DNA of 32,000 bases from an archaeon (GTDB lineage Archaea > Iainarchaeota > Iainarchaeia > Iainarchaeales > CSSED10-239), in the NCBI GenBank assembly GCA_041657425.1, contig JBBABY010000007.1, forward strand, positions 34,328 to 66,327, in the 5' to 3' direction. Position 1 is the stretch's first letter. The number at the start of each line of letters is the position of its first letter. Below the pieces are notes generated by a model. The model was not told the DNA's origin, did not search any database, and saw nothing but the letters and a program-made list of their open reading frames with translations. The translations under genes and the position numbers were made by a program. This document shows, in pieces, positions 2,407 through 31,981 of the stretch.

Positions 2407-3528
2407 ATGAAAACTAAAAATAAATTGTTAGTTGTTTTAATGGCTTTAGTTGTTGTAGTTTTAATTGGATTTTTAATAACAATTAATTCAGGAACAACTG
2501 GTTTATTTTCTTTAAATAAAAAAGAATACATAGAAGTTGGTTATATTTCTGCACTTTCTGGAGATGCGGGAATTTGGGGTCAATCTTTAAAGAAAGGTTT
2601 TGATTTTGCTGTAGAGGAAATTAATTCAAAAGGAGGAATTAATGGAAAATTAATAAAACCAGTTTTTGAAGACGATATGTGTGATCCTAAAACTGGAATA
2701 AATGCTTATACAAAAATTATAGAAGCAGATAATGTAAAAATAATTACAGGAACAGTTTGTTCATCAGTTGCTTTGTCAGTTGCTCCTATTACTCAAGAGA
2801 ATAGGGTGCTTTACTTAGCATCAGGAGCAACCCACCCAGACGTTACTAAACAAGGAGATTTAATATTTAGAGTGTGGGTTTCAGATGCTTATGAAGCAAG
2901 AGCAGTAACTGAGTATGCAATTAATAACTTAGGAGTAAACAGTTTTGGAATAATATATATGAACGACACTCCTTCAGGAGTTTCTGTTAAAGATACAATT
3001 GAAAAAGTAGTTGCCGAGAATAACAAAACAATAACAATAGAAGAAGGATTTTTGTCAGACACTAAAGACTTCAAAAGTATTGCAACAAAAGTAATTGCCA
3101 ACAATCCAGAAGCAATATACATTATGAGCACGCCAGAGAATATGCCATTAATAATAAATGAATTAAAAACATTGAACTACAATGGAAAAATATTTGTTTA
3201 TGGCCCATCAATATTGTCTGAAGGAACATTAGCAAAAATAAATGATAAGACAAACATCTATTACCCTTTGCCAATAACAAAACAAGAAACCGATTTTTGG
3301 AGCAATTATAAACAAAAGACCGGAACAGAGGCAGATATTATTGTTGCCGGTGGTTATGATTCAATGATCTTAATAGCAGACGGATTAAAAGAATGTGGAG
3401 AAGATAATGATTGTATAAGAAACTATTGGTTATCATTAGAAGACTATAAAACAACAAGAGGAGACGTTTCTTTTGATAAAGAAAGAGAAATAACTGGAGT
3501 GGAATATGAAATAAAAGAACTTAATTAA
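2407..3528 (+). CDS. Periplasmic-binding-protein type I solute-binding protein (LivK / branched-chain amino acid-binding-like), membrane-anchored
   Basis: N-terminal hydrophobic anchor LLVVLMALVVVVLIGFLI. Block GYISALSGDAGIWGQSLKKGFDFAVEEINSKGGINGK...EDDMCDP is typical of the Leu/Ile/Val-binding family. ATG 2407 is preferred over listed 2389 because GGAG at 2396..2399 lies 7 nt upstream. Confidence 0.8.
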   Translation: MKTKNKLLVVLMALVVVVLIGFLITINSGTTGLFSLNKKEYIEVGYISALSGDAGIWGQSLKKGFDFAVEEINSKGGINGKLIKPVFEDDMCDPKTGINAYTKIIEADNVKIITGTVCSSVALSVAPITQENRVLYLASGATHPDVTKQGDLIFRVWVSDAYEARAVTEYAINNLGVNSFGIIYMNDTPSGVSVKDTIEKVVAENNKTITIEEGFLSDTKDFKSIATKVIANNPEAIYIMSTPENMPLIINELKTLNYNGKIFVYGPSILSEGTLAKINDKTNIYYPLPITKQETDFWSNYKQKTGTEADIIVAGGYDSMILIADGLKECGEDNDCIRNYWLSLEDYKTTRGDVSFDKEREITGVEYEIKELN

Positions 3529-5056: not shown

Positions 5057-6067
5057 ATGGTAAAGAATAAAATTTGTCTTGGAATTGAAAGTACAGCTCA
5101 CACGTTTGGTGTAGGGATAATTGATTCCAAGGGAAAGATTTTAGCTAATTGTAAAAAACAATATGTAGTTACAGATAAAGCAGAAGGACTTAAACCTTTT
5201 GATGTTTCAATACATCACTATAATTGTGCAGTTGATGTTGTTAAAGAAGCTTTAGTTGTTGCAAAATTAAAGATGAAGGATATAGATGTTATTTCTTTCT
5301 CAAAAGGTCCTGGACTTTCGCCATGTCTTGCAGTTTCGGCAACTGTTGCTAGATGCTTGTCTGATAAATACAATAAACCAATAATTGGAGTTAATCATTG
5401 CGTGAGTCACATAGAAATTGGAAAAACAATCCTTAAGTGTAAAGACCCATTAGTGATTTACACTTCTGGAGCAAACACACAAATTATTGCTAAAGATAAA
5501 GGATACTATAAAATACTTGGAGAAACACTTGACATTGGGATTGGAAATTTATTTGATTCATTTGCAAGAGATATTGGTTATGGTTTTCCAGGCGGGCCAG
5601 TTTTGGATAAAGCATATATGGAAAACAAAAATAGACGCTATATTGAACTTCCATATTCTGTTAAAGGAATGGACTTAGCATTTTCTGGTCTTCAAACTGC
5701 AGCAAAAAGAAAGATTGCTACAGAAAAAAAAGAAGATCTTATTTATTCATTTATGCATACGGCTTATGCAATGCTTCTTGAGGTAACAGACAGAGCATTA
5801 TCGTACACCAAGAAAAAAGAAGTAATTGTTATTGGCGGAGTTGCTGCAAGTAGGGCCTTAGGAGAAATGCTTGAAAAATTATGTAAGCAAAATAAAGTAA
5901 AATTGTACATTCCTCCTGCAATTGTTTGTCTTGACAATGGTTTATTGATTGCAGATCTTGGTATTAAGCATTATATTCACACATATAAAGGCAAAGGCGG
6001 AATGAAACTAGAAGAAACAATAATCAACCCCAAGTTTAGAACAGATCAAGTGAAAATAGATTGGTGA
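5057..6067 (+). CDS. kae1: tRNA N6-adenosine threonylcarbamoyltransferase Kae1 (stand-alone, not fused to Bud32)
   Basis: GIESTAHTFGVGII N-terminus, metal-binding NHCVSHIE motif, GGVAAS block. 336 aa ending at TGA. Confidence 0.93.
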   Translation: MVKNKICLGIESTAHTFGVGIIDSKGKILANCKKQYVVTDKAEGLKPFDVSIHHYNCAVDVVKEALVVAKLKMKDIDVISFSKGPGLSPCLAVSATVARCLSDKYNKPIIGVNHCVSHIEIGKTILKCKDPLVIYTSGANTQIIAKDKGYYKILGETLDIGIGNLFDSFARDIGYGFPGGPVLDKAYMENKNRRYIELPYSVKGMDLAFSGLQTAAKRKIATEKKEDLIYSFMHTAYAMLLEVTDRALSYTKKKEVIVIGGVAASRALGEMLEKLCKQNKVKLYIPPAIVCLDNGLLIADLGIKHYIHTYKGKGGMKLEETIINPKFRTDQVKIDW

Positions 6068-6074
6068 AAATGAA

Positions 6075-7103
6075 ATGGAATCAGAGGATTTAATATTTGA
6101 TTTAATATATGATGCTCTTAAAACAAAAGATAGAAGGAAAAAGATATTATTTAAAGATAGAGAACATAATATATCAGAATACGAATTAGAATCTATTAAA
6201 AAATATTTACTAACAATTTCACCAAATTATTCTAAAAAATTTTATTCTATCGTTAAGGAATTTAATGCAAATCAATTGGCTGTATTATTAGAGACAATAA
6301 GAAGTTTTAGAAAACAAGAAAGGCCCGCAAATCAATTGATTAGGGAGATAAAAGATATACACAAGGGAATATTTCCAAGGCATATAAGTTATAAAACAGA
6401 ATATACTTCTGGTTGTTTAGAAACATATTCTGGTTTTATTAGAGCACTAAATTCAGGAACATTGTATACTGCAAAAGTTAAGATAAATGGAGAATTAAAA
6501 AGAGTTTTTATAAAAACACCAATTGGGCACGTATATAAAAATAGCTCTAATAACCAAGGATTTTTATCATTTGCAATAGATCCAGAAACAATGAATGTTT
6601 ATTCTTATAGATTTAACGAAAAAGGGAAAATACATAATGGTTCTTTAGAAGAAGTTTATAATTTTAAAGAATATGAAACACAAATGGTCGAACAATATTC
6701 TGATGAATCAAAGACGAATTTTAAACAAAATTATCTGGATTTCAGAAAAGAACTTCTTGATAGAATTGATGCAGTTTATGGAATTGAAAGGGTAGTAGAT
6801 ACCTTTTTAAGAATGGGTGGAAAGGTTGATCCCGAAAAATATTCTAATCCAGAATTTAGAGAAGAAATGATAAATTATCTTGAAGAAAAGTTTGGAACTG
6901 ATAAACTTCTTAATTGGGTTTCAAAAATTAAAGATTCAAAAAAGGCAGCAGAAGTAAAACTTGAGATTTTAAAAATTCTTTCTATGAAATTTAGACCAGA
7001 ATTTAGGAAAGCATATAACTCTGAAAATAAAATTGCTGCAAAAGAATATATCAATAGTTTTTCTAAAAGAAAGATTATTATTAAACCAAGAAAACCTCTA
7101 TAA
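6075..7103 (+). CDS. Hypothetical protein (342 aa)
   Basis: Long ORF starting 8 nt after the kae1 stop. No kinase or other recognisable motifs. Confidence 0.5.
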   Translation: MESEDLIFDLIYDALKTKDRRKKILFKDREHNISEYELESIKKYLLTISPNYSKKFYSIVKEFNANQLAVLLETIRSFRKQERPANQLIREIKDIHKGIFPRHISYKTEYTSGCLETYSGFIRALNSGTLYTAKVKINGELKRVFIKTPIGHVYKNSSNNQGFLSFAIDPETMNVYSYRFNEKGKIHNGSLEEVYNFKEYETQMVEQYSDESKTNFKQNYLDFRKELLDRIDAVYGIERVVDTFLRMGGKVDPEKYSNPEFREEMINYLEEKFGTDKLLNWVSKIKDSKKAAEVKLEILKILSMKFRPEFRKAYNSENKIAAKEYINSFSKRKIIIKPRKPL

Positions 7104-7189
7104 AGAAATCTCTTTTTAAACTTATTTGTCTTATTTTTATTAGAGATAAATATATTTTAAAGAATATTAAAAATGAGGAGTGAAAAAGA

Positions 7190-7540
7190 ATGAAAGCAAA
7201 ATTTCATATGGTGAAAAAAGTAGTAGATATGGAAAATCCAAAAAAGAATTCTAAAGAAGAAAAAGATATAGTTGTTTCAATTGATGAACAGTTTGAATTA
7301 GAGGGTGGAATTTATGTATTTAAATTACTTGCAGCTAGATCAAATGGCGCACAAGTAGAATATGATAGACATTTTCTTGTAAAGGAAGAACACAAAGGTT
7401 ACGAGTTTAATACATTGTTTTATATGGGCGAACCAAAACAAATAACATCAATGTGGGGAAAGAACCAAATCACCTACACAATGACATATCAAGGAACAGT
7501 TTTAGACGGTTCTCCAGAAAGTACAGAAAGATTCGAATAG
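7190..7540 (+). CDS. Hypothetical protein (116 aa)
   Basis: ORF preceded by GAGGAGTGA RBS-like sequence. No family recognised. Confidence 0.45.
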   Translation: MKAKFHMVKKVVDMENPKKNSKEEKDIVVSIDEQFELEGGIYVFKLLAARSNGAQVEYDRHFLVKEEHKGYEFNTLFYMGEPKQITSMWGKNQITYTMTYQGTVLDGSPESTERFE

Positions 7541-7594
7541 AAGAGTAAAAACAATTTTACTCTTTTCTCTAGTTTTAATAATAAAGGAAAAAAA

Positions 7595-7942
7595 ATGTAT
7601 AAACAAGTTATTATTTTTAGAAACGATTTAAAACTTGGTAAAGGAAAGATTGCTGGTCAAGTAGGCCATGCAGCAGTTGAATCTTATATTCTAACTTCTA
7701 AGAAAGACCCTAATGCCACAGAATATTGGTTAAGAGAAGGTCAAAAGAAAGTTGTTCTAAAGATTGATTCCAAAAAAGAACTACTTGAATTATATCAATC
7801 TATAAAAAATAAATTTCCTTGTGTGTTAATCAAAGACGCAGCATTAACTCAATTACCAGAACCAGACATCACTTGTCTTGGGATTGGCCCAATTAAGGAA
7901 ACAGAAATTGATCAATTTACAAGAAAATATAAGCTTTTGTAA
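7595..7942 (+). CDS. pth2: Peptidyl-tRNA hydrolase, archaeal/eukaryotic Pth2 type
   Basis: MYKQVIIFRNDLKLGKGKIAGQVGHAAV N-terminus and ITCLGIGP block are typical of Pth2. 115 aa. Confidence 0.9.
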   Translation: MYKQVIIFRNDLKLGKGKIAGQVGHAAVESYILTSKKDPNATEYWLREGQKKVVLKIDSKKELLELYQSIKNKFPCVLIKDAALTQLPEPDITCLGIGPIKETEIDQFTRKYKLL

Positions 7943-8075
7943 ATCTTCTATAGTTGTTAACTATTTCTTCAGAATTACAAAAAATTCAATAGGTAGTTTA
8001 TTATTGTTTAAAATCCTTTATTGTATATATAGATTCCAAAAAGAAAAGAATATAAATACTTATTCATATATATTA

Positions 8076-8091
8076 TTTACTAAATAGTAAA
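8076..8091. promoter_or_regulatory. Perfect 7-bp inverted repeat (TTTACTA-AA-TAGTAAA), candidate operator between a TATA-like box and the putative toxin-antitoxin operon
   Basis: Read directly. TATAAATA at 8051..8058 lies about 20 nt upstream and the first start codon (8095/8104) lies just downstream. Confidence 0.3.
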
Positions 8092-8103
8092 TAAGTGATA
8101 CAT

Positions 8104-8424
8104 ATGAATAAAGAAAAAACAAAGAAAATAATAAAAGAGAAAGTAACAAAAACAATTAAAGAGAAATACTCTCCAACATTAAATACAATCTTGATGGTAG
8201 AGAAAACATTACAGGAAATGCCAGATAGTGTGATTAAGATTTCAGAATTAAAAAGGTTATTACCAAAGCAAGTAAACCATAATACTCTAAAAAATATATT
8301 AGAATATTTACAAGAAAGCAATAAGATATTTATTGGAGTAAAAGGAATTGTTTGGATACACAACGATAGTCCTAAATTAAGAAAAGCAATACTAGATGCT
8401 GAAAGAGATGGGCGAATACTATGA
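8104..8424 (+). CDS. Small winged-helix-like protein, putative antitoxin/regulator
   Basis: ORF (GTG 8095 or ATG 8104) overlaps the downstream RelE-like ORF by ATGA. Segment ISELKRLLPKQVNHNTLKNILEYLQESNKIFIGVKGIVWI looks like a wHTH. Assignment is by context. Confidence 0.4.
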   Translation: MNKEKTKKIIKEKVTKTIKEKYSPTLNTILMVEKTLQEMPDSVIKISELKRLLPKQVNHNTLKNILEYLQESNKIFIGVKGIVWIHNDSPKLRKAILDAERDGRIL

Positions 8425-8774
8425 CAAAACAAGTAAAAATTCGTTATTCAGAAGAAGTAAAAATTGCATTAAATTATTTAATAAAAACAAAAGAAAAAAA
8501 TAAAGTTAATAAATCAATATACAATTCCTTTCTTAAAAAAATAGAATTGATTAAGGAAAATCCGGTGTGTGGAGACCACATCCCTAAGACCCAAATACCT
8601 AAAGAGTACATAACTAATTATGACATAAATAATCTATTTAGATTAGAGCTTGCAAATTATTGGAGGTGCCTATATTCTTTGACTGATAAAAAAGAAAACA
8701 AAATAGAAATTATTGCATTTGTAATTGACTTCTTAGATCACAATAAGTACAATAAGAAATTTAAATACAAATAA
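8421..8774 (+). CDS. RelE/ParE-superfamily-like toxin
   Basis: Pattern IKENPVCGDHIP....LFRLELANYWRCLYSL..KENKIEIIAFVIDFLDHNKY follows the RelE/ParE consensus (..nP..g..l....lyklrvgdyRliYei....i.il.i.hRk.vY). 117 aa, second gene of an overlapping pair. Confidence 0.5.
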   Translation: MTKQVKIRYSEEVKIALNYLIKTKEKNKVNKSIYNSFLKKIELIKENPVCGDHIPKTQIPKEYITNYDINNLFRLELANYWRCLYSLTDKKENKIEIIAFVIDFLDHNKYNKKFKYK

Positions 8775-8814
8775 CACTAATTCTTGGACACTTTGTGAGC
8801 CAACTTGCCGAAGG

Positions 8815-8830
8815 ATATATATATATATAT
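8815..8830. repeat. (AT)8 dinucleotide microsatellite
   Basis: Read directly: ggATATATATATATATATcgg in the intergenic region upstream of the 8882 gene. Confidence 0.9.
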
Positions 8831-8881
8831 CGGTTTTCTGTTTATTTATAAATTAATAATTAAAAATGGAGATGAGCTTAG

Positions 8882-9316
8882 ATGGTTAAAGAGAATATAA
8901 AATTTAAGGTAATATCTACTGTAATTAAAAGATTAGAAGAAAGAAAAGCAGAAGACATTTTAAGAGTTAGAAGAGCTGAAGAAAGAGCTGAAGAAAACGC
9001 AAGAGTTAGAAAAGCAGAAAACATTTCAAAAGCCAGAAGAGCTGAAGAAAACGCAAGAGCCAGAAAAGCAGAAGACATTTCAAAAGCCAGAAGAGCTGAA
9101 GAAAAAGCAAGAGTAAGAAAAGCTGAAGACATTTTAAGAGACAGAAGAGCTGAAGAAAAAGCAAGAGTAAGAAAAGCTGAAGAAATAATAAGACAAGAAA
9201 AAGCAAGACTAATAAAAAAACAAGAAGAATTAGACAGACAAAAATACGAATTTCAAGCAAGACAAAGACGAGAAGAACAGAGAAAAAAGATTATTAATAG
9301 AAGATTATATAAATAA
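8882..9316 (+). CDS. Highly charged Arg/Glu/Lys/Ala repeat protein (predicted long single alpha-helix or coiled coil)
   Basis: 144 aa built from 18-aa units RRAEE(N/K)AR(V/A)RKAE(D/N)I(S/L)(K/R)(A/D). GGAG at 8868..8871 precedes the ATG. Confidence 0.6.
   Translation: MVKENIKFKVISTVIKRLEERKAEDILRVRRAEERAEENARVRKAENISKARRAEENARARKAEDISKARRAEEKARVRKAEDILRDRRAEEKARVRKAEEIIRQEKARLIKKQEELDRQKYEFQARQRREEQRKKIINRRLYK
8969..9196 (+). repeat. In-frame 54-nt tandem repeat, about 4 units (first unit 66 nt with an internal 12-nt duplication), degenerate half-units on both flanks
   Basis: Units begin with agaagagctgaag at 8969, 9035, 9089 and 9143, an exact 54-nt period for the last three. Units 3 and 4 are identical over their first 40 nt. 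Confidence 0.9.
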
Positions 9317-9320
9317 AAAC

Positions 9321-9477
9321 TATTTATTTATCATTCTTCTTTCTTTTAATTCATTTAGTGCTTTAAGAGCAGATTCGTAAAGGCATCTATTTCTTATTTT
9401 CTAAAAATAACATTTAAATATCTGTCGCTTTATCATTTTAGTATAAATAATTAAACAATTTTAAATGGAGATGATTA
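9321..9477 (+). repeat. Junction module copy A (157 bp): 3' remnant of the 47-aa minus-strand ORF fused to a TATA-like/GGAG leader
   Basis: 152/157 identical, without gaps, to 10321..10477. Contains TTTAAATA (9412..9419), TATAAATA (9442..9449) and AAATGGAGATGA ending just before ATG 9478. Confidence 0.9.
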
Positions 9478-10248
9478 ATGATGGCAGGAGCACCAAAACC
9501 AAAAATAGGCATGGCTAAAACACAAATACCTAAAACAGGATCTAAATCAAAAGAAATAGTTGATCGTGTTAAAAAAGGGGCGGTTACAGGAGGTTTAATT
9601 ATTGCAACATTATTAGCTAGTAATACTCTAAAGCGAGTTATTGTTAATGATGAGATTGATAAAAAATTAGGATCCAAAATATTTCAATATGCCTCTGAAT
9701 ATAAAGCTAAAGGAGATCCTATTTTATTTAGTAAGAATGAAATAGATAAAGCGGTAGAAATATTAAATCAAAGAGCAAAACCAAACGTAATATTTTTCTT
9801 TGATGGATCTAATATAGATAGAATAATCTTGCCAAAATATGTAATAACAACTAGGAAAGCCTTAGGAATATTACCGCAAAAATCCCAAGAAAGAATTCAA
9901 TTAATATTAAAAAAAATAATTTTTGAAAATCTTCATTCTAAAACACAAGATTCTACACAAACTATGGTGGATTATTTAAAAATTTTACAAACTGCAGATT
10001 ATAATAAATTAGAAAGAAAACTTGGTAAAGAAAATGCATTATATTTACAAAAAGCTATAAAAGAAGAAATTTCTAAACTTTCAACAGATAAACAACTGTA
10101 CTTAAAAAATATATGTAAAGATTCAACCGCTACCGGAAATAAAATGATGGTTTTTTCTTTTTTAACTTCGGTGTTTTTGGGGATTTTGTTTAAGCACGCC
10201 GCAAAAGATGGAAGTGGTGGTCATGGTGCTGTTGGAGTGTTTGATTAA
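9478..10248 (+). CDS. Hypothetical membrane protein (256 aa)
   Basis: ORF with GGAG 7 nt upstream. Hydrophobic segments GAVTGGLIIATLLASNTL near the N-terminus and MMVFSFLTSVFLGILF near the C-terminus. No family recognised. Confidence 0.55.
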   Translation: MMAGAPKPKIGMAKTQIPKTGSKSKEIVDRVKKGAVTGGLIIATLLASNTLKRVIVNDEIDKKLGSKIFQYASEYKAKGDPILFSKNEIDKAVEILNQRAKPNVIFFFDGSNIDRIILPKYVITTRKALGILPQKSQERIQLILKKIIFENLHSKTQDSTQTMVDYLKILQTADYNKLERKLGKENALYLQKAIKEEISKLSTDKQLYLKNICKDSTATGNKMMVFSFLTSVFLGILFKHAAKDGSGGHGAVGVFD

Positions 10249-10320
10249 TGAATTTATAAGATTTAAAAATCTACATTTAGAAGAAGGTTAATAATTAGAA
10301 ATGTATTAAAGTAAATAATT

Positions 10321-10477
10321 TATTTATTTATCATTCTTCTTTCTTTTAATTCATTTAGTGCTTTAAGAGCAGATTCATATAGGCATCTATTTCTTATTTT
10401 CTAAAAATTATATTTAAATATCTGTCGTTTTATCATTTTAGTATAAATAATTAAACAATTTTAAATGGAGATGATTA
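10321..10477 (+). repeat. Junction module copy B (157 bp)
   Basis: Same register as copy A, offset exactly 1000 bp, 5 substitutions and no indels. Confidence 0.9.
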
Positions 10478-10761
10478 TGGCAATCGCGGAAAAAAGTTTG
10501 GCTGATAAAATAAAGTTTTTAGAAAAAGCCGGAGCTGGGTGGGAAGACATATTATGTGGAACCACAACTGTAGGCGAATATGAGAAAGCTAAAGAAATTA
10601 TCCTTAAAGATCCAATTATAAATAAGATTTTAAGAGAACATATAAAAGATTACAAAAAGATGACTGTGGCACAGATTGCAGGAAAATTAAGAGAATTAAA
10701 ATTAAATAACAGACCAGCAAGAAGAATTCAAAAGCCTGTAATTAGAAGTAGAGCAAAATAA
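10477..10761 (+). CDS. Hypothetical protein (94 aa from ATG 10477; listed ORF starts at 10465)
   Basis: ATG 10477 sits at the same distance from the shared GGAG (10467..10470) as ATG 9478 does in copy A. No family recognised. Confidence 0.5.
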   Translation: MAIAEKSLADKIKFLEKAGAGWEDILCGTTTVGEYEKAKEIILKDPIINKILREHIKDYKKMTVAQIAGKLRELKLNNRPARRIQKPVIRSRAK

Positions 10762-10766
10762 GTGAA

Positions 10767-10910
10767 TTATTTATTTATCATTCTTCTTTCTTTTAATTCG
10801 TTTAGTGCTTTAAGAGCTGCTTCATATAGGCATCTATTTCTTAAACTTTTTTCTTTTTTTGCTTCTCTGTCAAGAGAGTTTATTATGTCTTCAAGTTCTA
10901 AGTATGCCAT
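10767..10910 (-). CDS. Small ORF, 47 aa (MAYLELEDIINSLDREAKKEKSLRNRCLYEAALKALNELKERRMINK), below the ORF-track cutoff
   Basis: Hand translation of the minus strand gives ATG at 10910, TAA at 10769..10767 and 48 codons. It lies downstream of and co-oriented with hjc. Its 3' half is the sequence repeated in modules A and B. Confidence 0.35.
   Translation of the reverse strand: MAYLELEDIINSLDREAKKEKSLRNRCLYEAALKALNELKERRMINK
10768..10843 (+). repeat. Junction module copy C (76 bp), the ancestral-looking copy lying inside the intact 47-aa ORF
   Basis: 73/76 identical to the first 76 bp of copy B. Similarity ends where copies A and B switch to the promoter/leader part. Confidence 0.85.
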
Positions 10911-10977
10911 ATTTCTTCACGATTAAAAATATATTTTATTAATATATATTTATGAGAGAAAGAGTATTTAAAGACAA

Positions 10978-11379
10978 CTATTTACTTTCAAATTCAGCTA
11001 TGAACTTATCAAAATGAGTGCCTTTTTCTTTAATTTCTTCTCGTTTTATGGAGTAGGCTTTCTTTGTTTTGTTAAGCTTATCAATACCAATAAAGAACCA
11101 TTGGCCTTTTGTTAGCCTCCAAGCAACAAGTGCCTTTAGGCCACTAAGTTTTTCCCAAAGTTGAAGTTCCTCTACTTGTTCTTGCCTAATGTTTAAATAT
11201 TCCCCCTTTTTTGTCTTGCATTCAATAGCTATCGCTTTACCTGCTTTAAAAGCTAAGACATCAGGCGTAGGAAGCTGAGAAGAGCCAGACCCTGCCACTC
11301 TAGACACTGCAAAACCCTTGTTAAATAGGTCAAATAATAGTTCTCTTTCAGCGTTTGAGCCTTTTTGCTTGTTTTTCAT
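10978..11379 (-). CDS. hjc: Holliday junction resolvase Hjc
   Basis: KGSNAERELLFDLFNKGFAVSRVAGSG...PDVLAF....IAIECK carries the archaeal Hjc nuclease motif (E..D..ExK). 133 aa. Confidence 0.88.
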   Translation of the reverse strand: MKNKQKGSNAERELLFDLFNKGFAVSRVAGSGSSQLPTPDVLAFKAGKAIAIECKTKKGEYLNIRQEQVEELQLWEKLSGLKALVAWRLTKGQWFFIGIDKLNKTKKAYSIKREEIKEKGTHFDKFIAEFESK

Positions 11380-11571
11380 AGTAATTTTCCATAATTAAAA
11401 GATTATTATTAAATAAAAAATAAGGGTTTTATTTATATACTTTTTCATATATTAATATATTATAGTAATATAAACAAACAATAAATTTATATTTATATTC
11501 AAAAATTAAAAGATTAGAAAATTAGAATTAAAAGAAGATTTAACTTTTATAAGGAATTTGAGATAAACAAG

Positions 11572-11793
11572 ATGTTTACAAAGAGCCAAATAGTAAATTT
11601 ACAAGTTATTTGTAATACAGATAAACAAGAACTACAAAAGATTGATGATAATACTTATAAACTAAAAATAAGAAGCCAAGCGTTAAAAGGCAAGGCAAAC
11701 AAGGAAATCTTTGAGTTTTTCAAAGAGAAAGGATATAACATAGAGATAGTAAAAGGCGAAAAATCAAATAAAAAATTGATAAAAATCCTTTAA
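11572..11793 (+). CDS. DUF167 / YggU-like small protein
   Basis: KLKIRSQALKGKANKEIFEFFKEKGYNIEIVKGEKSNKKLIKI follows the DUF167 pattern (..dGkAN.eli.fla......v.ivsG.tsr.K.v.i). Confidence 0.7.
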   Translation: MFTKSQIVNLQVICNTDKQELQKIDDNTYKLKIRSQALKGKANKEIFEFFKEKGYNIEIVKGEKSNKKLIKIL

Positions 11794-11885
11794 ATTTATG
11801 TCCTTTTAAAAGTTAAAAGTCTTCTATTTTTCTAGTGTCTAGTCTATTTTTGAATGTTACAAAAACAGAAAGGAGACATTTTAAA

Positions 11886-12236
11886 ATGGGAAAAACATAT
11901 ATAGAAACAATCAAGTACATGATTGTTGCTGATTTTGAAGTTAATGGTTTAGTTGAAAGACCAGATATAATTGGAGCCATTTTTGGACAATCAGAAGGTC
12001 TTTTAGGAGCAAACTTAGACATTAAAGAATTACAACAAAATGGAAAGATTGGAAGAATAGAAATAGAATATACACAGAATCAAAATAAAGTTAGAGGAAT
12101 ATTAAAGCTACCATGTAGTGTTTCTATGGTTGAAACAGCAATCATTGGTGCTTCAATTGAAACTATTGAAAAAGTTGGTCCTTGTGATGCTTATTTTAAA
12201 ATTAAACAAATTGAAGACACAAGAGGACTTAAGTGA
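11886..12236 (+). CDS. dnaG: Archaeal DnaG primase, N-terminal domain fragment terminated by an in-frame TGA
   Basis: MGKTYIETIKYMIVADFEVNGLVERPDIIGAIFGQSEGLLG...GRIEIE...VETAIIGASIETIEKVGPCDAYFKI matches the conserved archaeal DnaG N-terminus. ATG 11886 is preferred because GGAG at 11872..11875 precedes it. The frame continues into the next ORF. Confidence 0.85.
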   Translation: MGKTYIETIKYMIVADFEVNGLVERPDIIGAIFGQSEGLLGANLDIKELQQNGKIGRIEIEYTQNQNKVRGILKLPCSVSMVETAIIGASIETIEKVGPCDAYFKIKQIEDTRGLK

Positions 12237-12278
12237 CAACAAATTAAAGAAAGAGCAATTGAGTTACTTGGAAGATTA

Positions 12279-13925
12279 ATGCAAGAAGAAATTCCAGACA
12301 CTAAGGAGTTAATGGAAGAAATAATGGATACTTTTAAAACAAAAGACATTATTTCATTTGGTCCAGATAAATTAGCAGCAGGTCCAACAGTTGAATCAAG
12401 TAAAGAATTAATTGTTGTGGAAGGAAGAGCAGATGTTTTAACTCTTTTAAGATATGGTTTTACAAATGCAATCGCAACAGGTGGAGCAAGAATACCAAAA
12501 TCTTTAGAAGAGATATCAAGACTTAAGTCAGTAACCATTTTCTTAGATGGAGACCATGGTGCAGATATTCAACAACAACAATTGTTAAAGTCAATTAAAG
12601 TTGAATACATTGCAAGAGCTCCAGATGGAAAAGAAGTTGAAGAATTAACACAGAAGGAAATTAATCAGGCTTTAAGAAGAAGAATAAAAGCAAGTTATGT
12701 AACCAGTGGTAATGGTACAAACAATAATGGACATATATCAACTAACCATCAAAGTACAACAGAACCTTTTGAAAACAAACAACAACCACAATTCAATCAA
12801 TTAACAAAGCAACCAGGAATTGTTAAAGCCACAAAGTTTTCAACAACAAATGATCATAAAGTTGCTCCAAGAACTTTTGAACCAAGAGGATTTGAAAACA
12901 ATTCCAGATCTTTTGATAGTAAGCCGTCATTTGAGAATAGGCAACCTTTTGAAAATAGATCTCAAAATAAATTTTCTCAAAATTCAGGAAGTTACAGACA
13001 ATCACAAGAACATAGTCCTGTAGCTGACGTGTTTAGTCAATTACTTTCCGAAATTCCAAATATCGAAAGAGTTGATATGAGTAGAGAAGATAGAGGCGGT
13101 TCAAGAGATCGCGGATCTAGAGACCATGGTTCAAGGGATAACCAAAGAAGAAATGGAGGAAATGATTTTTCAAGATCTCAAGGAAATAATCGTTTTGAAA
13201 ATAATACAAGACCATTACAAGAAAAAACCAATTTCAACAGACCAGAAAAGTCAATTGTAGATATGGTAAGAGAAGAAACTGAAAGTTTCCATTCTAAATT
13301 AAATTTACCAATGGATAATTTCAAACCACAAGAAACAATTGTTCCACAGATAAGAGCAGAAAACTTACAAGTAAAATTAGATGTCCCACACACAAGAGGA
13401 ATGGAAGTTCCAAACAAAGTAATGGACACTTCAAAAATACAACCTGCTGAGCAAATACAAGAAACAAGAGTAATTTCAAAAACTACAATAAGTAAATCAG
13501 ATTCTTCTGTAAAGCAAGACATTGTAAAAAAGATAACTGAGATTATTGAGAAGAAACAAATTGAAGAAAAGCCAATAATCAAAGAGGAACCAAAGAAGAA
13601 AGTAATTGCTCCTCTTTCAAAAATTACTGATGAAATCAAAACAAATCTTGGTAAGATTGTAGATGATATTAAGGATAAGAAAGAAGCAAGACTCTTAAAT
13701 GAAAAATTCAGAAGGATAAGTAGCTGTAGTGCTGCTGATCTTGAGCACAAGCTAAGAGACTTTACTTCTGATAAGTTATTTGCTATAGCAGTAGATCAAG
13801 ATATGAATGATACAATTAAAGACTTGGCAAAAGAAAAAGGTGCAAAGATAATAGTTGTAAGAAATTCAAATGGAGTAAAAGATAGTCAAATACATGTTCT
13901 TACATATCAAGAAATAAATAAATAA
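12279..13925 (+). CDS. dnaG: Archaeal DnaG primase, TOPRIM and C-terminal domains with a long low-complexity insert (same frame as the upstream fragment)
   Basis: TOPRIM blocks LIVVEGRADVLTLLRYGFTNAIATGG and IFLDGDHGAD, then YIARAPDGKEVEELT. C-terminal block AIAVDQDMNDTIKDLAKEKGAKIIVV. The frame is open back to the TGA at 12234..12236. Confidence 0.85.
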   Translation: MQEEIPDTKELMEEIMDTFKTKDIISFGPDKLAAGPTVESSKELIVVEGRADVLTLLRYGFTNAIATGGARIPKSLEEISRLKSVTIFLDGDHGADIQQQQLLKSIKVEYIARAPDGKEVEELTQKEINQALRRRIKASYVTSGNGTNNNGHISTNHQSTTEPFENKQQPQFNQLTKQPGIVKATKFSTTNDHKVAPRTFEPRGFENNSRSFDSKPSFENRQPFENRSQNKFSQNSGSYRQSQEHSPVADVFSQLLSEIPNIERVDMSREDRGGSRDRGSRDHGSRDNQRRNGGNDFSRSQGNNRFENNTRPLQEKTNFNRPEKSIVDMVREETESFHSKLNLPMDNFKPQETIVPQIRAENLQVKLDVPHTRGMEVPNKVMDTSKIQPAEQIQETRVISKTTISKSDSSVKQDIVKKITEIIEKKQIEEKPIIKEEPKKKVIAPLSKITDEIKTNLGKIVDDIKDKKEARLLNEKFRRISSCSAADLEHKLRDFTSDKLFAIAVDQDMNDTIKDLAKEKGAKIIVVRNSNGVKDSQIHVLTYQEINK

Positions 13926-13942
13926 AAAAATAAAAGAGAAAT

Positions 13943-14329
13943 TTATCTCTTTTTCTTTTTTACAATTTTCTTATTCTCAATAACTTTAGGAACTGGTTTT
14001 GTTTCTACATGTCTATGATAGAAAGCAGTACCAACTATTAGAATTGTGATTGCTAGTAGTGTTTTCATTAATGAATTTAAATATATCATTAGATACTGGC
14101 TTGTTGATAAATCTAATTGATTTTCTCTAATTTTAAAACCAAGTCCTGTTGATGCATTTTCTTTACATAATGCAAGTGTTGCGTCTGTATCTGAAATATC
14201 AATACAAGTTCTATACTCTGTAATGTAGTCCACTCTATTGAAAAGATCAACAAGTGAAAACACAAGTAGCAATATAGACAGAGTTATAATAAACGCGCCA
14301 ATTGTTTTAGTTGTATTTAATTTATTCAT
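13943..14329 (-). CDS. Hypothetical membrane protein (128 aa, two hydrophobic segments)
   Basis: N-terminal TM IGAFIITLSILLLVFSLV and C-terminal TM LLAITILIVGTAFY, with a basic tail KKIVKKKKR. Confidence 0.5.
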   Translation of the reverse strand: MNKLNTTKTIGAFIITLSILLLVFSLVDLFNRVDYITEYRTCIDISDTDATLALCKENASTGLGFKIRENQLDLSTSQYLMIYLNSLMKTLLAITILIVGTAFYHRHVETKPVPKVIENKKIVKKKKR

Positions 14330-14430
14330 AATTTCCCCCTTTTAATTAAATATAATAATATTATTATGGTGTTATGTATTTAAATATTTTTTTGTTTTAG
14401 TATTATATATAGTTTCTAGTTTTTTAGAAA

Positions 14431-14503
14431 GGATCTGTGGTCTAGCGGTTATGATACCACCTTTACAAGGTGGGGGTCGGCGGTCCGATTCCGTCCAGAT
14501 CCA
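14431..14503 (+). tRNA. tRNA-Val (anticodon TAC at 14464..14466)
   Basis: Hand-folded cloverleaf: acceptor GGATCTG/CAGATCC, anticodon arm CCACC-TTTACAA-GGTGG, T arm GGCGG-TCCGATT-CCGTC, discriminator A. 73 nt, no encoded CCA. The T-loop has C where U55 is expected. Confidence 0.8.
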
Positions 14504-14565
14504 TTTTTATTTAACATTTGGTTTCGTATCAGTGAAGTGTAGTCAGTACCATATAAATTCTGGCT

Positions 14566-14591
14566 GGGCGCGATCTGACCGCAACCGGCTC
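14566..14591 (+). repeat. GC-rich 26-nt hairpin motif, intergenic copy (gggcgcgatctgaccgcaaccggctc)
   Basis: Ungapped 20/26 and 19/26 identity to the two copies inside ftsY. Ends 2 nt before tRNA-Leu position 1. Confidence 0.6.
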
Positions 14592-14593
14592 AT

Positions 14594-14675
14594 GCAGGAA
14601 TTCCCGAGTGGCCAAAGGGGCACGGCTAAGAACCGTGTGCTTAGTGCTTCGCAGGTTCGAATCCTGTTTCCTGCA
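14594..14675 (+). tRNA. tRNA-Leu (class II, long variable arm); anticodon reads AAG at 14628..14630
   Basis: Hand fold: acceptor GCAGGAA/TTCCTGC, D arm CCC-GAGTGGCCAAA-GGG, anticodon arm CACGG-CTAAGAA-CCGTG, 13-nt variable region, T arm GCAGG-TTCGAAT-CCTGT, discriminator A. 82 nt. Confidence 0.75.
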
Positions 14676-14701
14676 TATTTTATTATTTAAATGGCTATTT
14701 T

Positions 14702-15424
14702 ATGAATAAAATTTATTCAGTCTATACTACAATGAATCTTTCTCGAATAAAGAAATATTCTAGGGCCAAATTTGGAGAATTAGATATTAACTTTTATTTT
14801 GCAGAAAAAATAAGTAAACTAATTTATAAGAACGTACTTTCTAAAAAAAAGAAATGCGTAATTTATTTTACAAAAAGAGAACCTAGAATTTCAATATATA
14901 CTAATAATTCTGAAATTCTCGCAAAAATGGTTTCTAAAATTTTAAAGTTACCATGTATTATTGGTAAATATAAAAGAAGATATAATAAGAAACATTTTTA
15001 TGATAATCAAATAAAAAGAAAAAGTATTGCTACAACTAGAATTAATGCAGAAATTAAAGAGAAATATAAGAATTATACTGTAATTATGGTTGATGATTCA
15101 ATACTTACAGGAACAGTTTTTAAAGCATCATTAAACGCACTTAAGTCTACGACTAAAGACGTGTATTTATTTACCATCGCGAATTTAAAAGATTGTAAAT
15201 TTTCAGAAAAAGAAGTTAATAACTTTTATTATTCTTTGAAAGGTATAGATTATTTAATTTTTCTTCTTAATCTGAAAAAACCAATTATTTCTGGACAATT
15301 GTTGAGAACAATTGATGATTTGAATAATACAGAAGTAAAAAGATTATTAAAAAATATTCCCGTTACAGAATCCAGTTTACTTAAAAAAGCATTTAAACAC
15401 TATATTGGAAGAAAATTAAATTAA
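14702..15424 (+). CDS. Phosphoribosyltransferase-fold protein (ComF/PRTase-like)
   Basis: Canonical PRPP-binding loop YTVIMVDDSILTGTVF in the middle of a 240-aa ORF. The flanks are unrecognisable. Confidence 0.6.
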   Translation: MNKIYSVYTTMNLSRIKKYSRAKFGELDINFYFAEKISKLIYKNVLSKKKKCVIYFTKREPRISIYTNNSEILAKMVSKILKLPCIIGKYKRRYNKKHFYDNQIKRKSIATTRINAEIKEKYKNYTVIMVDDSILTGTVFKASLNALKSTTKDVYLFTIANLKDCKFSEKEVNNFYYSLKGIDYLIFLLNLKKPIISGQLLRTIDDLNNTEVKRLLKNIPVTESSLLKKAFKHYIGRKLN

Positions 15425-26003: not shown

Positions 26004-27692
26004 ATGTCAAGACAAAAGAAATCTATATTAAAAGAAAAAAAAGCAATTGCTCCAATTATCGCAGTAGTCTTGCTTGTTGTAATTGCAGTAATCCTTGTGA
26101 CAATAATTCTTTCATTTGGTAAAGGATTTGCAATAAAGTCATTAGATAAAGCAGGAGATATAAAAGATTTTTCTAAATCAGATGCTGGAAACTTTATTTA
26201 TCCTAAAACTTTTAGTGATGGAGTTCTTCAAATAAATTATAATCCTGTGGGAGCTATAGGTCCTGTAGTAATTACACATTATACCATACTTGGTTCAGAT
26301 TTGTCGCCAGTTGAATTAACAACTCCAATAACATTAACTGCAGGTCAAAATATTATTAATCTAGAAAGTTTATATGGTTTTAATTCAATAAGTCCAGAAG
26401 TAGATATACAATTGATTACTTCAGATAATACCTATATAGATATAGGTGGCCAAATAGATAATGATCTGGTTTGTACTCCTGGAGGGACAGGAACACTAGT
26501 TGATCCAATAATTATTTGTGATGCAAGTGATTTAAACAATATAAGAAACGATTTAGATGCAAATTATGTTTTAGGAAAAGATATTGATCTTTATTCATTT
26601 TCAAGAATAGATGTTAATGGATGGTTACCAATAAATTCATTTACCGGGTCGTTTAATGGGAATGATTATGTAGTAAGCAATTTATATATTAATAGACCAG
26701 GAACTGATTATGTAGGATTATTTGGAAGTATTAATGGGTATTTAAGCTATGATGATGAGATTTGTAATTGTTCTATAACTACTGGCGCAACAATACAAAA
26801 TTTAGGTTTAGAAAATGTAGATGTTATAGGGGGAGAATTTGTTGGGGGTTTTGCAGGATCTGTTGCTTATTTAATTATAGATAATATTTATGTTACTGGA
26901 GAAGTATCTGGAGTAAATAATGTTGGTGGATTTTCCGGATATATCTCTTTTTCACAGATTTCTAATAGTTATTCAACTAGCAATATATCTGGCATTGGAG
27001 GGGGATTTGCAGGAATAATTTATGGAAAGAGTACAGCTATGAATAACGATGATTCTAACATTACTAATTGTTATGCTACAGGAAATGTTGATAGTGGTGG
27101 AGGTTTTGCTAATTTTTTGTTAGGTGGGACAATCACAGATAGTTATGCAACAGGTTCAGTTGCAAGTGGAGATTATGTTGGTGGTTTTATAGGAAATATA
27201 ATGGAATTGTCAGGAGAAACTGGTTATACTGTTATAATTACTAATTGTTATGCAACAGGAAATGTAATTGGTGGAGAGGGCGTTGGTGGTTTTGCAGGAT
27301 TTATAGATGGGACAATATCTAATTGCTATGCAACAGGGAATGCAACAGCAACAGGAGATTATGTTGGAGGATTTACAGGAGTATTTGTTCATATGGATAA
27401 TGGAGCAGAAGATACATTGTCAAACGTTTATTCTGTAGGTGCAATTTCAGGAAGCGGGGATAATGTAGGTGGTTTAATTGGATATAGTGGTGGAGGCGTT
27501 TCAAATTCTTTTTATGATACAACAATTTCTGGTCAATCAGATAATGACGGAAGAGGTGTTCCAAAAATAACAGCATTAATGAAAAATGAAGATACGTTTA
27601 CAGGTTGGACATTCCCTGGAACTTGGAGTATAACAGAAGGAACAACATATCCTTATCTTACAAGTAATGTTCAGTCACCATTGCCACAGTGA
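26004..27692 (+). CDS. Archaeal type IV pilin-like (class III signal peptide) surface protein with GLUG-motif beta-helix repeats, putative adhesin
   Basis: N-terminus KEKKAIAPIIAVVLLVVIAVILV matches the archaeal Pilin_N pattern (basic residues, small residue, then SP(V/I)IAxxLL hydrophobic helix). The C-terminal 300 aa hold at least 7 repeats of (I/L)(T/S)N(C/S)YATG(N/S)V....(V/G)GGF(A/T/I)G, the GLUG motif. Confidence 0.75.
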   Translation: MSRQKKSILKEKKAIAPIIAVVLLVVIAVILVTIILSFGKGFAIKSLDKAGDIKDFSKSDAGNFIYPKTFSDGVLQINYNPVGAIGPVVITHYTILGSDLSPVELTTPITLTAGQNIINLESLYGFNSISPEVDIQLITSDNTYIDIGGQIDNDLVCTPGGTGTLVDPIIICDASDLNNIRNDLDANYVLGKDIDLYSFSRIDVNGWLPINSFTGSFNGNDYVVSNLYINRPGTDYVGLFGSINGYLSYDDEICNCSITTGATIQNLGLENVDVIGGEFVGGFAGSVAYLIIDNIYVTGEVSGVNNVGGFSGYISFSQISNSYSTSNISGIGGGFAGIIYGKSTAMNNDDSNITNCYATGNVDSGGGFANFLLGGTITDSYATGSVASGDYVGGFIGNIMELSGETGYTVIITNCYATGNVIGGEGVGGFAGFIDGTISNCYATGNATATGDYVGGFTGVFVHMDNGAEDTLSNVYSVGAISGSGDNVGGLIGYSGGGVSNSFYDTTISGQSDNDGRGVPKITALMKNEDTFTGWTFPGTWSITEGTTYPYLTSNVQSPLPQ

Positions 27693-31360: not shown

Positions 31361-31981
31361 ATGAAAATGATATTTGGATTTGATATAATATTTATTGTAA
31401 GAGTTTTATTGTTATTAGTTGCAGTTGGTTTAGCTGCTTACTTTGATTATAAAACTGGTTATATTTATGATTGGATAAGTTTGCCGTTGATTGGACTTGG
31501 TTTAATTTTAAACATTTTTACTTATTATTATATAGATGTTCTTGAAATTTGTTTAATTGCATTAACGATTTATATTGTAGGGTATATCGCTTATTATTTC
31601 GGAAAGATAGGTGGAGGAGATATCAAGTTGTTTATTGGAATACATATGGTCTTGCCTTACTTTTATAATCAAGTATTTATCCTATGGGTAATTATTGCTG
31701 CATCTTTGTTATCAGTGTTATTTGTTTCAATTTCATACATTATAAAACTATACAGTAAGATAAAACTAACAAATAAATTCTTAAAAGAAAAAACTTGGAA
31801 GATTATAAAATCTTTAGGACTATTTATTTTATTTACTGCTTTTTTAATTTTTTCAGTAGTCTATGGCGGTCTTCCTGCTTACGTTTATTTAACACTTCCA
31901 CCAATGTTTTTCGGTAGTGTAGTTATGATATTTGAAGAGGAAGTAAAAAAATATATTTATTTAAGAAAGAAACCAATATAA
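31361..31981 (+). CDS. A24-family prepilin/preflagellin peptidase (PibD/FlaK/EppA-like)
   Basis: Polytopic membrane protein with first Asp motif AAYFDYKTGYI.DW and second Asp motif GGGDIKLF. Confidence 0.75.
   Translation: MKMIFGFDIIFIVRVLLLLVAVGLAAYFDYKTGYIYDWISLPLIGLGLILNIFTYYYIDVLEICLIALTIYIVGYIAYYFGKIGGGDIKLFIGIHMVLPYFYNQVFILWVIIAASLLSVLFVSISYIIKLYSKIKLTNKFLKEKTWKIIKSLGLFILFTAFLIFSVVYGGLPAYVYLTLPPMFFGSVVMIFEEEVKKYIYLRKKPI

Follow-up and report, generated by a model that had tools for sequence, protein, structure and literature searches.

Introduction

Integrons encode the tyrosine recombinase IntI next to an attI site, both of which are absent in some clusters of attC sites lacking integron-integrases (CALINs). 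Their cassettes are usually promoterless and expressed from the promoter Pc, and their attC sites are imperfect inverted repeats that fold to hairpins as single strands. Xer-dependent modules, i.e., integrative mobile elements exploiting Xer (IMEX) and the pdif modules of Acinetobacter plasmids, are small and integrase-less, often carry toxin-antitoxin or single genes, possess repeated sites and are served by the host recombinase in trans. Flexible genomic islands, either replacement or additive, are maintained by homologous recombination in conserved flanks. In the ssrA islands of Dehalococcoides, direct repeats of a gene's 3' end stand between tandem islands, with a repeat length of 20 bp (PMC3146451), and the accretion model for streptococcal cis-mobilizable elements (CIMEs) as well as integrative and mobilizable elements (IMEs) describes elements which stack at the 3' end of their target (PMC5704250). 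Integron cassettes have been reported in Archaea as well, mostly as CALINs (PMC9668308). Here we describe a small cassette array in a 32-kb stretch of contig JBBABY010000007.1 (in the following "the window") from an Iainarchaeum-like DPANN archaeon, whose closest genomes are uncultured archaeal metagenome-assembled genomes (MAGs). The array lies between the gene for the peptidyl-tRNA hydrolase PTH2 and ORF47, a gene of 47 amino acids (aa), and the interval between these two genes is an insertion hotspot in this lineage. To our knowledge, little is known on gene gain and exchange by DPANN archaea with very small genomes, and no description of a comparable hotspot was found in the literature searched.

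As in the ssrA islands and in CIME accretion, variable cargo is located directly downstream of one conserved gene and differs between strains. The units are likewise bounded by a direct repeat of the gene's 3' end, the target is intact, the arrangement is tandem and some units carry no integrase. Unlike in the ssrA islands, the target is a tiny protein-coding gene and not a tRNA or tmRNA gene, and the repeat of 76-77 nt is considerably longer than the one of Dehalococcoides. The units themselves differ from both ssrA islands and CIMEs in their size of 0.45-2 kb, in carrying one or two genes with an own promoter-like leader and in their DPANN host, and none of the approximately 25 loci examined here yielded an element with an integration module. 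The locus shows the structural features of an att duplication but, in the ORFs scanned, not the element-encoded integrase. While accretion itself is known, very small integrase-less cassettes with promoter-like leaders, directed at a tiny protein-coding gene of a DPANN archaeon, appear to be new.

With integrons and CALINs the locus shares head-to-tail, single-gene units of ~0.5-1 kb which each end in a repeated module resembling a recombination site, a cargo of mostly ORFans or toxin-antitoxin-type genes and the lack of an integrase nearby. However, the 76-nt repeat (R76) derives from coding sequence and is no attC site, neither IntI nor attI is present in the window, and the units have own promoter-like sequences instead of Pc. 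DNA folds of R76 alone and of R76 with the adjoining block P81 (see below) gave z-scores of -0.04 to +0.6 on both strands, i.e., no attC-like hairpin. The window copy of the repeat did not contain arms of 10 nt that match at 8 or more positions, and a palindrome in the repeat of relative L013 is not conserved. The suggestion of integron-like cassettes, made in the original prediction for this DNA, therefore does not hold. The locus resembles Xer-dependent modules in having small integrase-less modules bounded by repeated sites, but there is no dif-like 11-6-11 imperfect palindrome of ~28 bp in the window repeat, which is the 3' end of a gene. A hypervariable slot between housekeeping genes, with different alleles of gene2 and gene3 between the same leader and downstream gene, is also seen in flexible islands; however, flank-mediated replacement alone neither duplicates the end of the downstream gene nor moves it elsewhere. 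In contrast to miniature inverted-repeat transposable elements (MITEs) or transposons, which have terminal inverted repeats and duplicate a short target site, the unit ends carry no inverted repeats, and the 76-nt direct repeat is gene-derived.

Anatomy of the cassette array

The array consists of three plus-strand genes (gene1, gene2 and gene3), each followed by a copy of one sequence (Table 1). We refer to the 76 nt common to the copies A, B and C as R76 and to the next 81 nt, present in A and B only, as P81. Repeats A (9321-9477) and B (10321-10477) comprise 157 nt each, are identical at 152 of 157 positions without indels and are offset by exactly 1000 bp. Repeat C (10768-10843) represents the first 76 nt only, with 71/76 positions identical to A and 73/76 to B, and its similarity to both stops abruptly past these 76 nt. 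The 32-mer TATTTATTTATCATTCTTCTTTCTTTTAATTC at the start of R76 occurs in exactly three copies in the window, whereas zero are expected from shuffled sequences. Repeat C is situated inside the intact ORF47; in A and B the frame of ORF47 is without a usable start and closed by TAG. The original prediction, which had described these repeats and read the junction module as a promoter/leader joined to what is left, start-less and stop-interrupted, of the 3' end of ORF47, was confirmed in all these points. Also its statement that a repeat copy follows within 4-72 nt of each gene agrees with the measured gaps between gene stop and repeat of 4, 72 and 6 nt.

The leader AAATGGAGATGA was found solely at 8864, 9463 and 10463 in the window, ahead of the three genes. 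If one mismatch is tolerated, the expectation is 0.46 matches, and three were reached in 4 of 100 shuffles. The claim that all three genes are preceded by the same leader is correct for this motif, but the block in front of gene1 (lead1) is no copy of P81 and only ~70-80% similar to it. The spacer behind gene2 (10249-10320) aligns locally to the tail of the gene3-like gene of relative L009 with 25/31 matches (shuffle p ~0.004). As the spacer keeps this gene3-like tail, cargo has also been replaced within an existing unit. The tails of gene1 and gene3 show no significant homology (p = 0.12-0.18), and no known RNA family was detected at E <= 1 in the region 8700-11000.

Read-through of the TAG in the remnants A and B was considered and rejected: with an in-frame ATG 11 codons upstream a protein of 37 aa would result, but no support for recoding was found, and the one further in-frame stop noticed, a TGA in DnaG, is AGA in L034. 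Similarly, the block with CACTAATTCTTGGAC upstream of the lead1 leader was dismissed as a decayed copy of the repeat, with shuffle p-values of 0.35-0.87 in local alignments and no match to the ORF47 nhmmer profile.

Table 1. Positions of the array components and of the bordering genes in the window.
Feature	Position	Strand	Description
PTH2 (peptidyl-tRNA hydrolase)	7595..7942	+	Pfam PF01981, E 9e-35; borders the slot on the left, conserved and next to it in nearly all relatives
p109/p117 gene pair	8095..8774	+	accessory slot cargo; only in some relatives (L005/L011, L032), tblastn synteny
lead1, resident leader block	8775..8881	+	CACTAATTCTTGGAC, hairpin CCGAAGGATATATATATATATATCGG then T run, TATA-like box, GGAGATGA leader resembling a ribosome-binding site; precedes gene1
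Cargo gene1	8882..9316	+	144 aa, charged, coiled-coil-like, 18-aa tandem repeat; no homolog found
R76 copy A	9321..9396	+	last 25 codons and stop of ORF47, antisense remnant; nhmmer ORF47 profile positions 68-139, E 9e-11
P81 copy A	9397..9477	+	78/81 identical to P81 copy B; ~75% identical to leaders of relatives
Cargo gene2	9478..10248	+	256 aa, hydrophobic N- and C-terminal segments; divergent member of a clade-restricted slot family
Spacer after gene2	10249..10320	+	contains remnant of a gene3-like 3' end
R76 copy B	10321..10396	+	nhmmer ORF47 profile, E 3e-10
P81 copy B	10397..10476	+	promoter/leader-like block ahead of gene3
Cargo gene3	10477..10761	+	94 aa; the L009 homolog, 82% identical, is the sole gene in the L009 slot
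ORF47	10767..10910	-	47-aa clade-specific gene downstream of Hjc; R76 copy C (10768-10843) forms its last 76 nt
Hjc Holliday-junction resolvase	10978..11379	-	Pfam PF01870, E 9e-23; conserved right neighbour; shares the strand of ORF47 and lies upstream of it

The window originates from a short-read metagenome assembly, in which it is contained in the ENA contig ERZ27247350:k141_1120282, and short Logan contigs end at the repeats, as would be seen if single-cassette strains had been falsely joined in tandem by the assembler. Nevertheless, we regard such an artefact of the assembly or chimera of strains as extremely improbable and, in practice, as ruled out. An independently deposited MAG contig (NCBI JBAYND010000011.1, GCA_041678985.1; L034) is 99.93% identical to window positions 5477-15351 (9.9 kb); the 7 single-nucleotide polymorphisms (SNPs) are all outside the array, whose sequence is identical. 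In addition, a 902-bp Logan contig (SRR18595299) contains exactly the gene2 unit and ends within the repeats. A and B differ at 5 positions and any 141-mer spans at least one of them, so that an assembly with k = 141 is able to separate the two copies. Both junctions between the repeat and P81 can therefore be distinguished, and each is joined to different unique flanks. A chimera of single-cassette strains would be expected to produce a bubble in the assembly graph and not these junction sequences. The duplication, for which the possibility of an artefact had been raised from the start, is real.

The interval between PTH2 and ORF47 in related archaea

Approximately 25 syntenic loci, among the matches listed, were compared. 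PTH2 and ORF47 are convergent, and the interval between their stops varies across these loci. In L006, L007, L016 and L017 the slot is empty, with few to ~30 nt between the two stops. In other relatives it is occupied by a GNAT gene (L008), a ParD/RelE-like pair (L014), a 146-aa ORFan (L015) or HicB together with an AAA_14/DUF4143 ATPase (L018). Members of the gene2 family are present alone in L003, L012 and L031, together with an AAA_14/DUF4143 ATPase in L002, L004 and L010 and together with the p109/p117 pair in L005, L011 and L032, and in L009 the gene3 homolog (82% identity) is found alone behind the same leader type. Thus, as in genomic islands, empty slots exist and unrelated cargo occupies the same site. 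The close relative L032 carries p109, p117, lead1, a gene2 variant (gene2', 48% identical to gene2) and ORF47, with a nearly identical p117. As this relative has the simple state, the three-cassette state of the window is derived.

ORF47 is kept in every syntenic Hjc-PTH2 locus examined, with 59-87% aa identity. Judged from its sequence differences it is a real gene under purifying selection, since the pairwise differences amount to 363, 202 and 845 at the first, second and third codon position, respectively. An exhaustive HMMER search against 1.84 billion cluster representatives returned only one other, distant representative.

The ATPase with AAA_14 and DUF4143 domains recurs in L002, L004, L010, L013 and L018, i.e., in four slot arrangements, and at another locus in L036 together with a gene2-like cassette. 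DUF4143 is reportedly mentioned in a paper on the PD-(D/E)XK superfamily. In L014 two genes of 89 aa each precede ORF47 (positions 1-900) in a toxin-antitoxin-like layout, and this contig of 1.9 kb gave no match for Hjc. As the 5' side differs here, the neighbourhood of ORF47 is variable on the 5' side as well in some lineages.

Extra copies of the ORF47 end and their boundaries

The original prediction had proposed to look for the module in relatives. With an nhmmer profile of ORF47, partial extra copies were detected, among the loci examined, only in the window, in L013, in the group L021-L030 and in L036. In L013 a 77-nt direct repeat with 97% identity corresponds to the last 25 codons and the stop of ORF47. 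The two copies flank a unique insert of 1848 nt, which encodes a 141-aa protein and an AAA_14/DUF4143 ATPase, and the dead copy is located 13 nt from the PTH2 stop, the position that ORF47 has at empty sites. Hjc of L013 is only 62% identical to that of the window, and the L013 duplication is evidently independent of the one in the window.

The group L021-L030, which comprises at least 24 contigs and stems from many samples, shows the order PTH2, cassette one, ~165 nt of unrelated sequence, cassette two and live ORF47. Each cassette is composed of the leader block, a gene2-like gene (251 aa in the first, 240 aa in the second) and a tail, and cassette one terminates in a decayed copy of the repeat with an 18-nt deletion. 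L036 contains a module of ATPase, leader block, gene2-like gene and repeat, which has 80% nucleotide identity to the module of L002, L004 and L010, at another chromosomal locus, between the thermosome gene and the region of an SSB-like OB protein and a class-I tRNA synthetase (IleRS). Of ORF47, this locus holds profile positions 71-142 (E 1e-5) and nothing else; the repeat has moved with its cassette. The exact 11-mer TTCTTTTTCTT is present at both ends of the L036 module (3509-3519 and 5776-5786), where 0.28 occurrences are expected per 10 kb on both strands.

Read in the orientation of the cargo, the intact ORF47 contains ...GGCATTTATTTCTTAAACTCTTTTC..., and the extra copies depart from it after TTTCTTA in the window, TTTTCTT in L036, TTTTA in L021 and TTCTTAAACTTTT in L013. 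These four junctions lie in ORF47 codons 21-23, each with a different partner sequence. The inner boundaries of the window, L036 and L021 coincide within ~3 nt and that of L013 is at +8, so that all four fall within ~10 nt, although for L021 and L036, whose copies are decayed, the boundary can be placed only to within a few nt. In simulations, four random breakpoints in a 144-nt gene came to lie within 10 nt with p ~0.002. In the window, L013 and L036 the outer boundary coincides with the stop codon of ORF47 (+0 to 2 nt), as would be expected if only the coding end needs restoring. As far as can be told from the sequences, the recurrent boundary and the identity block up to the gene end match the identity block of an att site, and the insertion point in the window would be at ~10843/10844 (codons 22-23). 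The five variable positions of the window repeats form a ladder, in which A resembles the ancestral state, B has one derived state in common with C, and further changes are seen in C. This would fit, as a weak indication, with the gene1 cassette being the oldest and the gene3 cassette the newest.

Origin of the array

We favour, with moderate confidence, a Campbell-type insertion of small promoter-bearing cassettes at a fixed point of ORF47, stacked by accretion with the help of an enzyme acting in trans. The unit would be composed of a leader with promoter and ribosome-binding site, one or few genes and a duplicate of the terminal ~76 nt of ORF47. A circular form of this unit would recombine with the chromosome at ORF47 codons 21-23 (...TTTCTTA^AAC... 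on the plus strand). The incoming repeat would become the new 3' end, by which ORF47 would remain intact, and the old 3' end would be stranded as a dead direct repeat. Repeated rounds would stack the cassettes, with gene1 inserted first, then gene2 and finally gene3 beside the live ORF47. The repeat would terminate transcription of the preceding gene and P81 would restart it. As neither the window nor the examined cassettes yielded a recombinase, the enzyme would have to be supplied in trans. An indirect hint at excision as a circle and re-integration is given by L036, with cassette and repeat at another locus between the two 11-mers.

The direct repeats of the target's 3' end that flank inserted DNA next to an intact target, i.e., the three R76 copies in the window and the 77-nt repeat in L013, are in line with this favoured explanation, and so is the recurrent crossover position with an identity block up to the gene end, within the few nt by which the decayed boundaries are uncertain. 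The original prediction of an att duplication is in this respect strengthened by the empty sites, the unrelated cargo, the L013 duplication, the mobility seen in L036 and the coinciding boundaries; the site-specific nature of the integration we infer from these. Several results speak against it. No integrase or transposase, as had been predicted, and no other recombinase domain was found in any ORF of the window, nor any recombinase domain in the scanned cargo of relatives (the L013 insert, the L004 ATPase, the L005 gene2-like gene and L018, the L036 module being excluded). The repeat contains no conserved inverted-repeat core and no hairpin. Most occupied relatives have no leftover copy of the repeat, and in L002, L004 and L010 the ATPase module adjoins PTH2 without a remnant. 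In the L021 group the two cassettes are paralogous with 74-94% nucleotide identity, which resembles an ordinary segmental duplication, and the second half of the L021 remnant alone is not significant (p = 0.32), its boundary being derived from the multiple alignment only. The imprecise boundaries of the decayed L021 and L036 copies have to be added here. The leader is homologous to the resident leader of the gene2 family and hence endogenous and not a foreign backbone, and viral contigs gave no match for ORF47, gene3, the gene2 family or the L013 ATPase.

An alternative would be an endogenous tandem duplication of the leader-gene-repeat unit, followed by triplication and cargo replacement, without any dedicated mobile element or recombinase. 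Illegitimate recombination or slippage at the A/T-rich tract by ORF47 codons 18-22, followed by unequal crossing-over, would produce the repeats, and the gene bodies would be swapped by homologous recombination with divergent alleles of the population via the leader and repeat flanks. The breakpoint indeed adjoins the homopolymer-rich tract GCAAAAAAAGAAAAAAG, the P81 copies A and B have one identical junction to the repeat, and the at least 24 contigs of the L021-L030 group demonstrate that a whole cassette can be duplicated in tandem. The same leader type is found ahead of gene2-like genes, gene3-like genes and gene1 in different genomes, the single-cassette "alleles" (gene2' in L032, the gene3 homolog, gene3', in L009) are what allelic replacement between conserved flanks predicts, and the gene3-like tail in the gene2 spacer indicates replacement within a pre-existing unit. 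However, paralogy throughout the units, expected from a plain tandem duplication, is seen in the L021 group but not in the window, where flanks of 97% identity enclose cargo of different lengths without any similarity. L013, with its unique 1848 nt between 77-nt repeats and the dead copy at the empty-site position, is hard to produce in this way, as is L036, where repeat and cassette are bounded by 11-nt repeats at another locus, and four junctions with unrelated partners cluster within ~10 nt. A duplication accounts for the window and L021 but not for L013 or L036, and we consider it a serious rival, though rather less likely than the favoured insertion. The same final anatomy as with the favoured insertion would be obtained by a Campbell insertion via general homologous recombination, in which, after one ancestral duplication of the repeat, circles bearing it would be set free by recombination between repeats and would re-enter the same genome or related ones by a RadA-dependent crossover anywhere in the 76 nt, the repeat being portable homology and not a recombinase site. 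The missing recombinase gene and the lack of a recognisable core or inverted-repeat site would be in agreement with this, and the three window copies share lineage-specific residues (…RRMINK) that are absent in relatives, which points to an origin within the genome or population. Nevertheless, different partners meet nearly the same boundary in the window, L013, L021 and L036, which would require several independent accidents at one spot, and the non-homologous locus of L036 shares only the 11-nt repeat, whose length does not suffice for efficient homologous recombination. We therefore regard this route as improbable.

Beyond the favoured insertion at ORF47, the DPANN clade might possess a cassette-capture system which is integron-like in its function but differently built: units would be inserted, stacked and moved via a site in a tiny gene whose 3' end serves as a portable "repair arm". 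We consider this a speculative and rather doubtful extension. Such a system could rely on a recombinase of the host that works in trans or on an enzyme so far unrecognised, and the AAA_14/DUF4143 (PD-(D/E)XK-like) ATPase of the slot is one candidate.

The locus represents a recurrent insertion point with a defined boundary sequence, for which empty, single, double and triple states are available in public metagenomes. It opens the search for the responsible recombinase, on the level of reads and biochemically, and for circular micro-cassettes. Clade-restricted ORFans, toxin-antitoxin genes and ATPases are the content to be expected for functions in host interaction or defence. If only duplication and allelic exchange were at work, the locus would still be a clean example of a flexible micro-island, without a new mechanism.

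Leaders and expression signals

In each unit a GGAGATGA leader is combined with an own TATA-like box, which lies ~35 nt before the ATG. In lead1 the TATA-like box is located ~36 nt ahead of the ATG, and in P81 the box (GTATAAATAA) is found ~35-36 nt before the ATG in addition to the GGAGATGATTA leader. lead1 is 91-93% identical to the leaders upstream of gene2-like genes in relatives (L002/L004/L005; ~93% in L032). P81 is a more divergent homolog (~75% identical) of this resident leader of the gene2 family, and the homology runs on into the start of gene2. Comparable G(G/A)(T/A)GAT motifs and TATA-like boxes are spaced in a similar way ahead of other window genes. From their position, the leaders probably act as promoters and ribosome-binding sites. 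On the cargo strand the repeat starts with a long T-rich run, which may be terminator-like for the preceding gene, and each unit would resemble a self-contained archaeal expression cassette.

A conserved block of ~105 nt (window 8775-8830; also in the leaders of L002-L005, L012, L021, L032 and L036) always starts 0-4 nt after the upstream stop, regardless of the gene to which this stop belongs. It contains CACTAATTCTTGGAC and, ahead of a T run, a hairpin formed by CCGAAGG, an (AT)n run and CGG. No Rfam family matched this block, which may be a second insertion boundary or a terminator.

Cargo genes

The proteins of gene1, gene2 and gene3 are mutually dissimilar (BLASTP E >= 2), in agreement with the unrelated cargo that had been predicted. 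For gene1 the homolog search returned zero matches. Its internal repeat (window 8983-9183) has a period of 54 nt (18 aa, RRAEEKARVRKAEDI...) with 3.7 copies of 93% identity, which suggests a recent internal expansion. gene2 is 21-48% identical to its family in alignments. Among 5.8e9 proteins this family forms only 18 clusters, and the members on the examined contigs all belong to this archaeal clade. The AlphaFold model of gene2 reached a predicted local distance difference test (pLDDT) score of 43, too poor for a structure search. The family is fast-evolving and possibly membrane-associated. gene3 gave only 2 matches among the same 5.8e9 proteins.

No match in Pfam, NCBIfam or PHROGs was obtained for genes 1-3, ORF47 or p117, and for p109 there was only a marginal Pfam match to Mis14 (26.6 bits, cut-off 24.9). 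p109 and p117 overlap and lie behind the stop of PTH2 and ahead of the conserved leader block; their layout is toxin-antitoxin-like, without a family match.

Genomic surroundings

The G+C content of the window is ~28%. Its neighbouring genes are archaeal housekeeping genes, i.e., PTH2, Hjc, DnaG, TsaD, CysRS, the ribosomal proteins S19e and L31e, eIF6, SRP54 and FtsY. The DnaG gene (11886-13925) contains an in-frame TGA at 12234-12236, where L034 has AGA and relatives encode Arg; this is most likely a nonsense SNP on strain level or a sequencing error and not recoding. Between TsaD and p116 a 342-aa ORFan (window 6075-7103) is 44-75% identical among relatives, whereas its neighbours reach 88-94%; it is another fast-evolving gene near the hotspot. 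At 26004-27692 a weak match to the archaeal type IV pilin N-terminus and a GLUG motif were found, near a Peptidase_A24 type IV prepilin peptidase (31361-31981), which suggests a possible surface-appendage locus.

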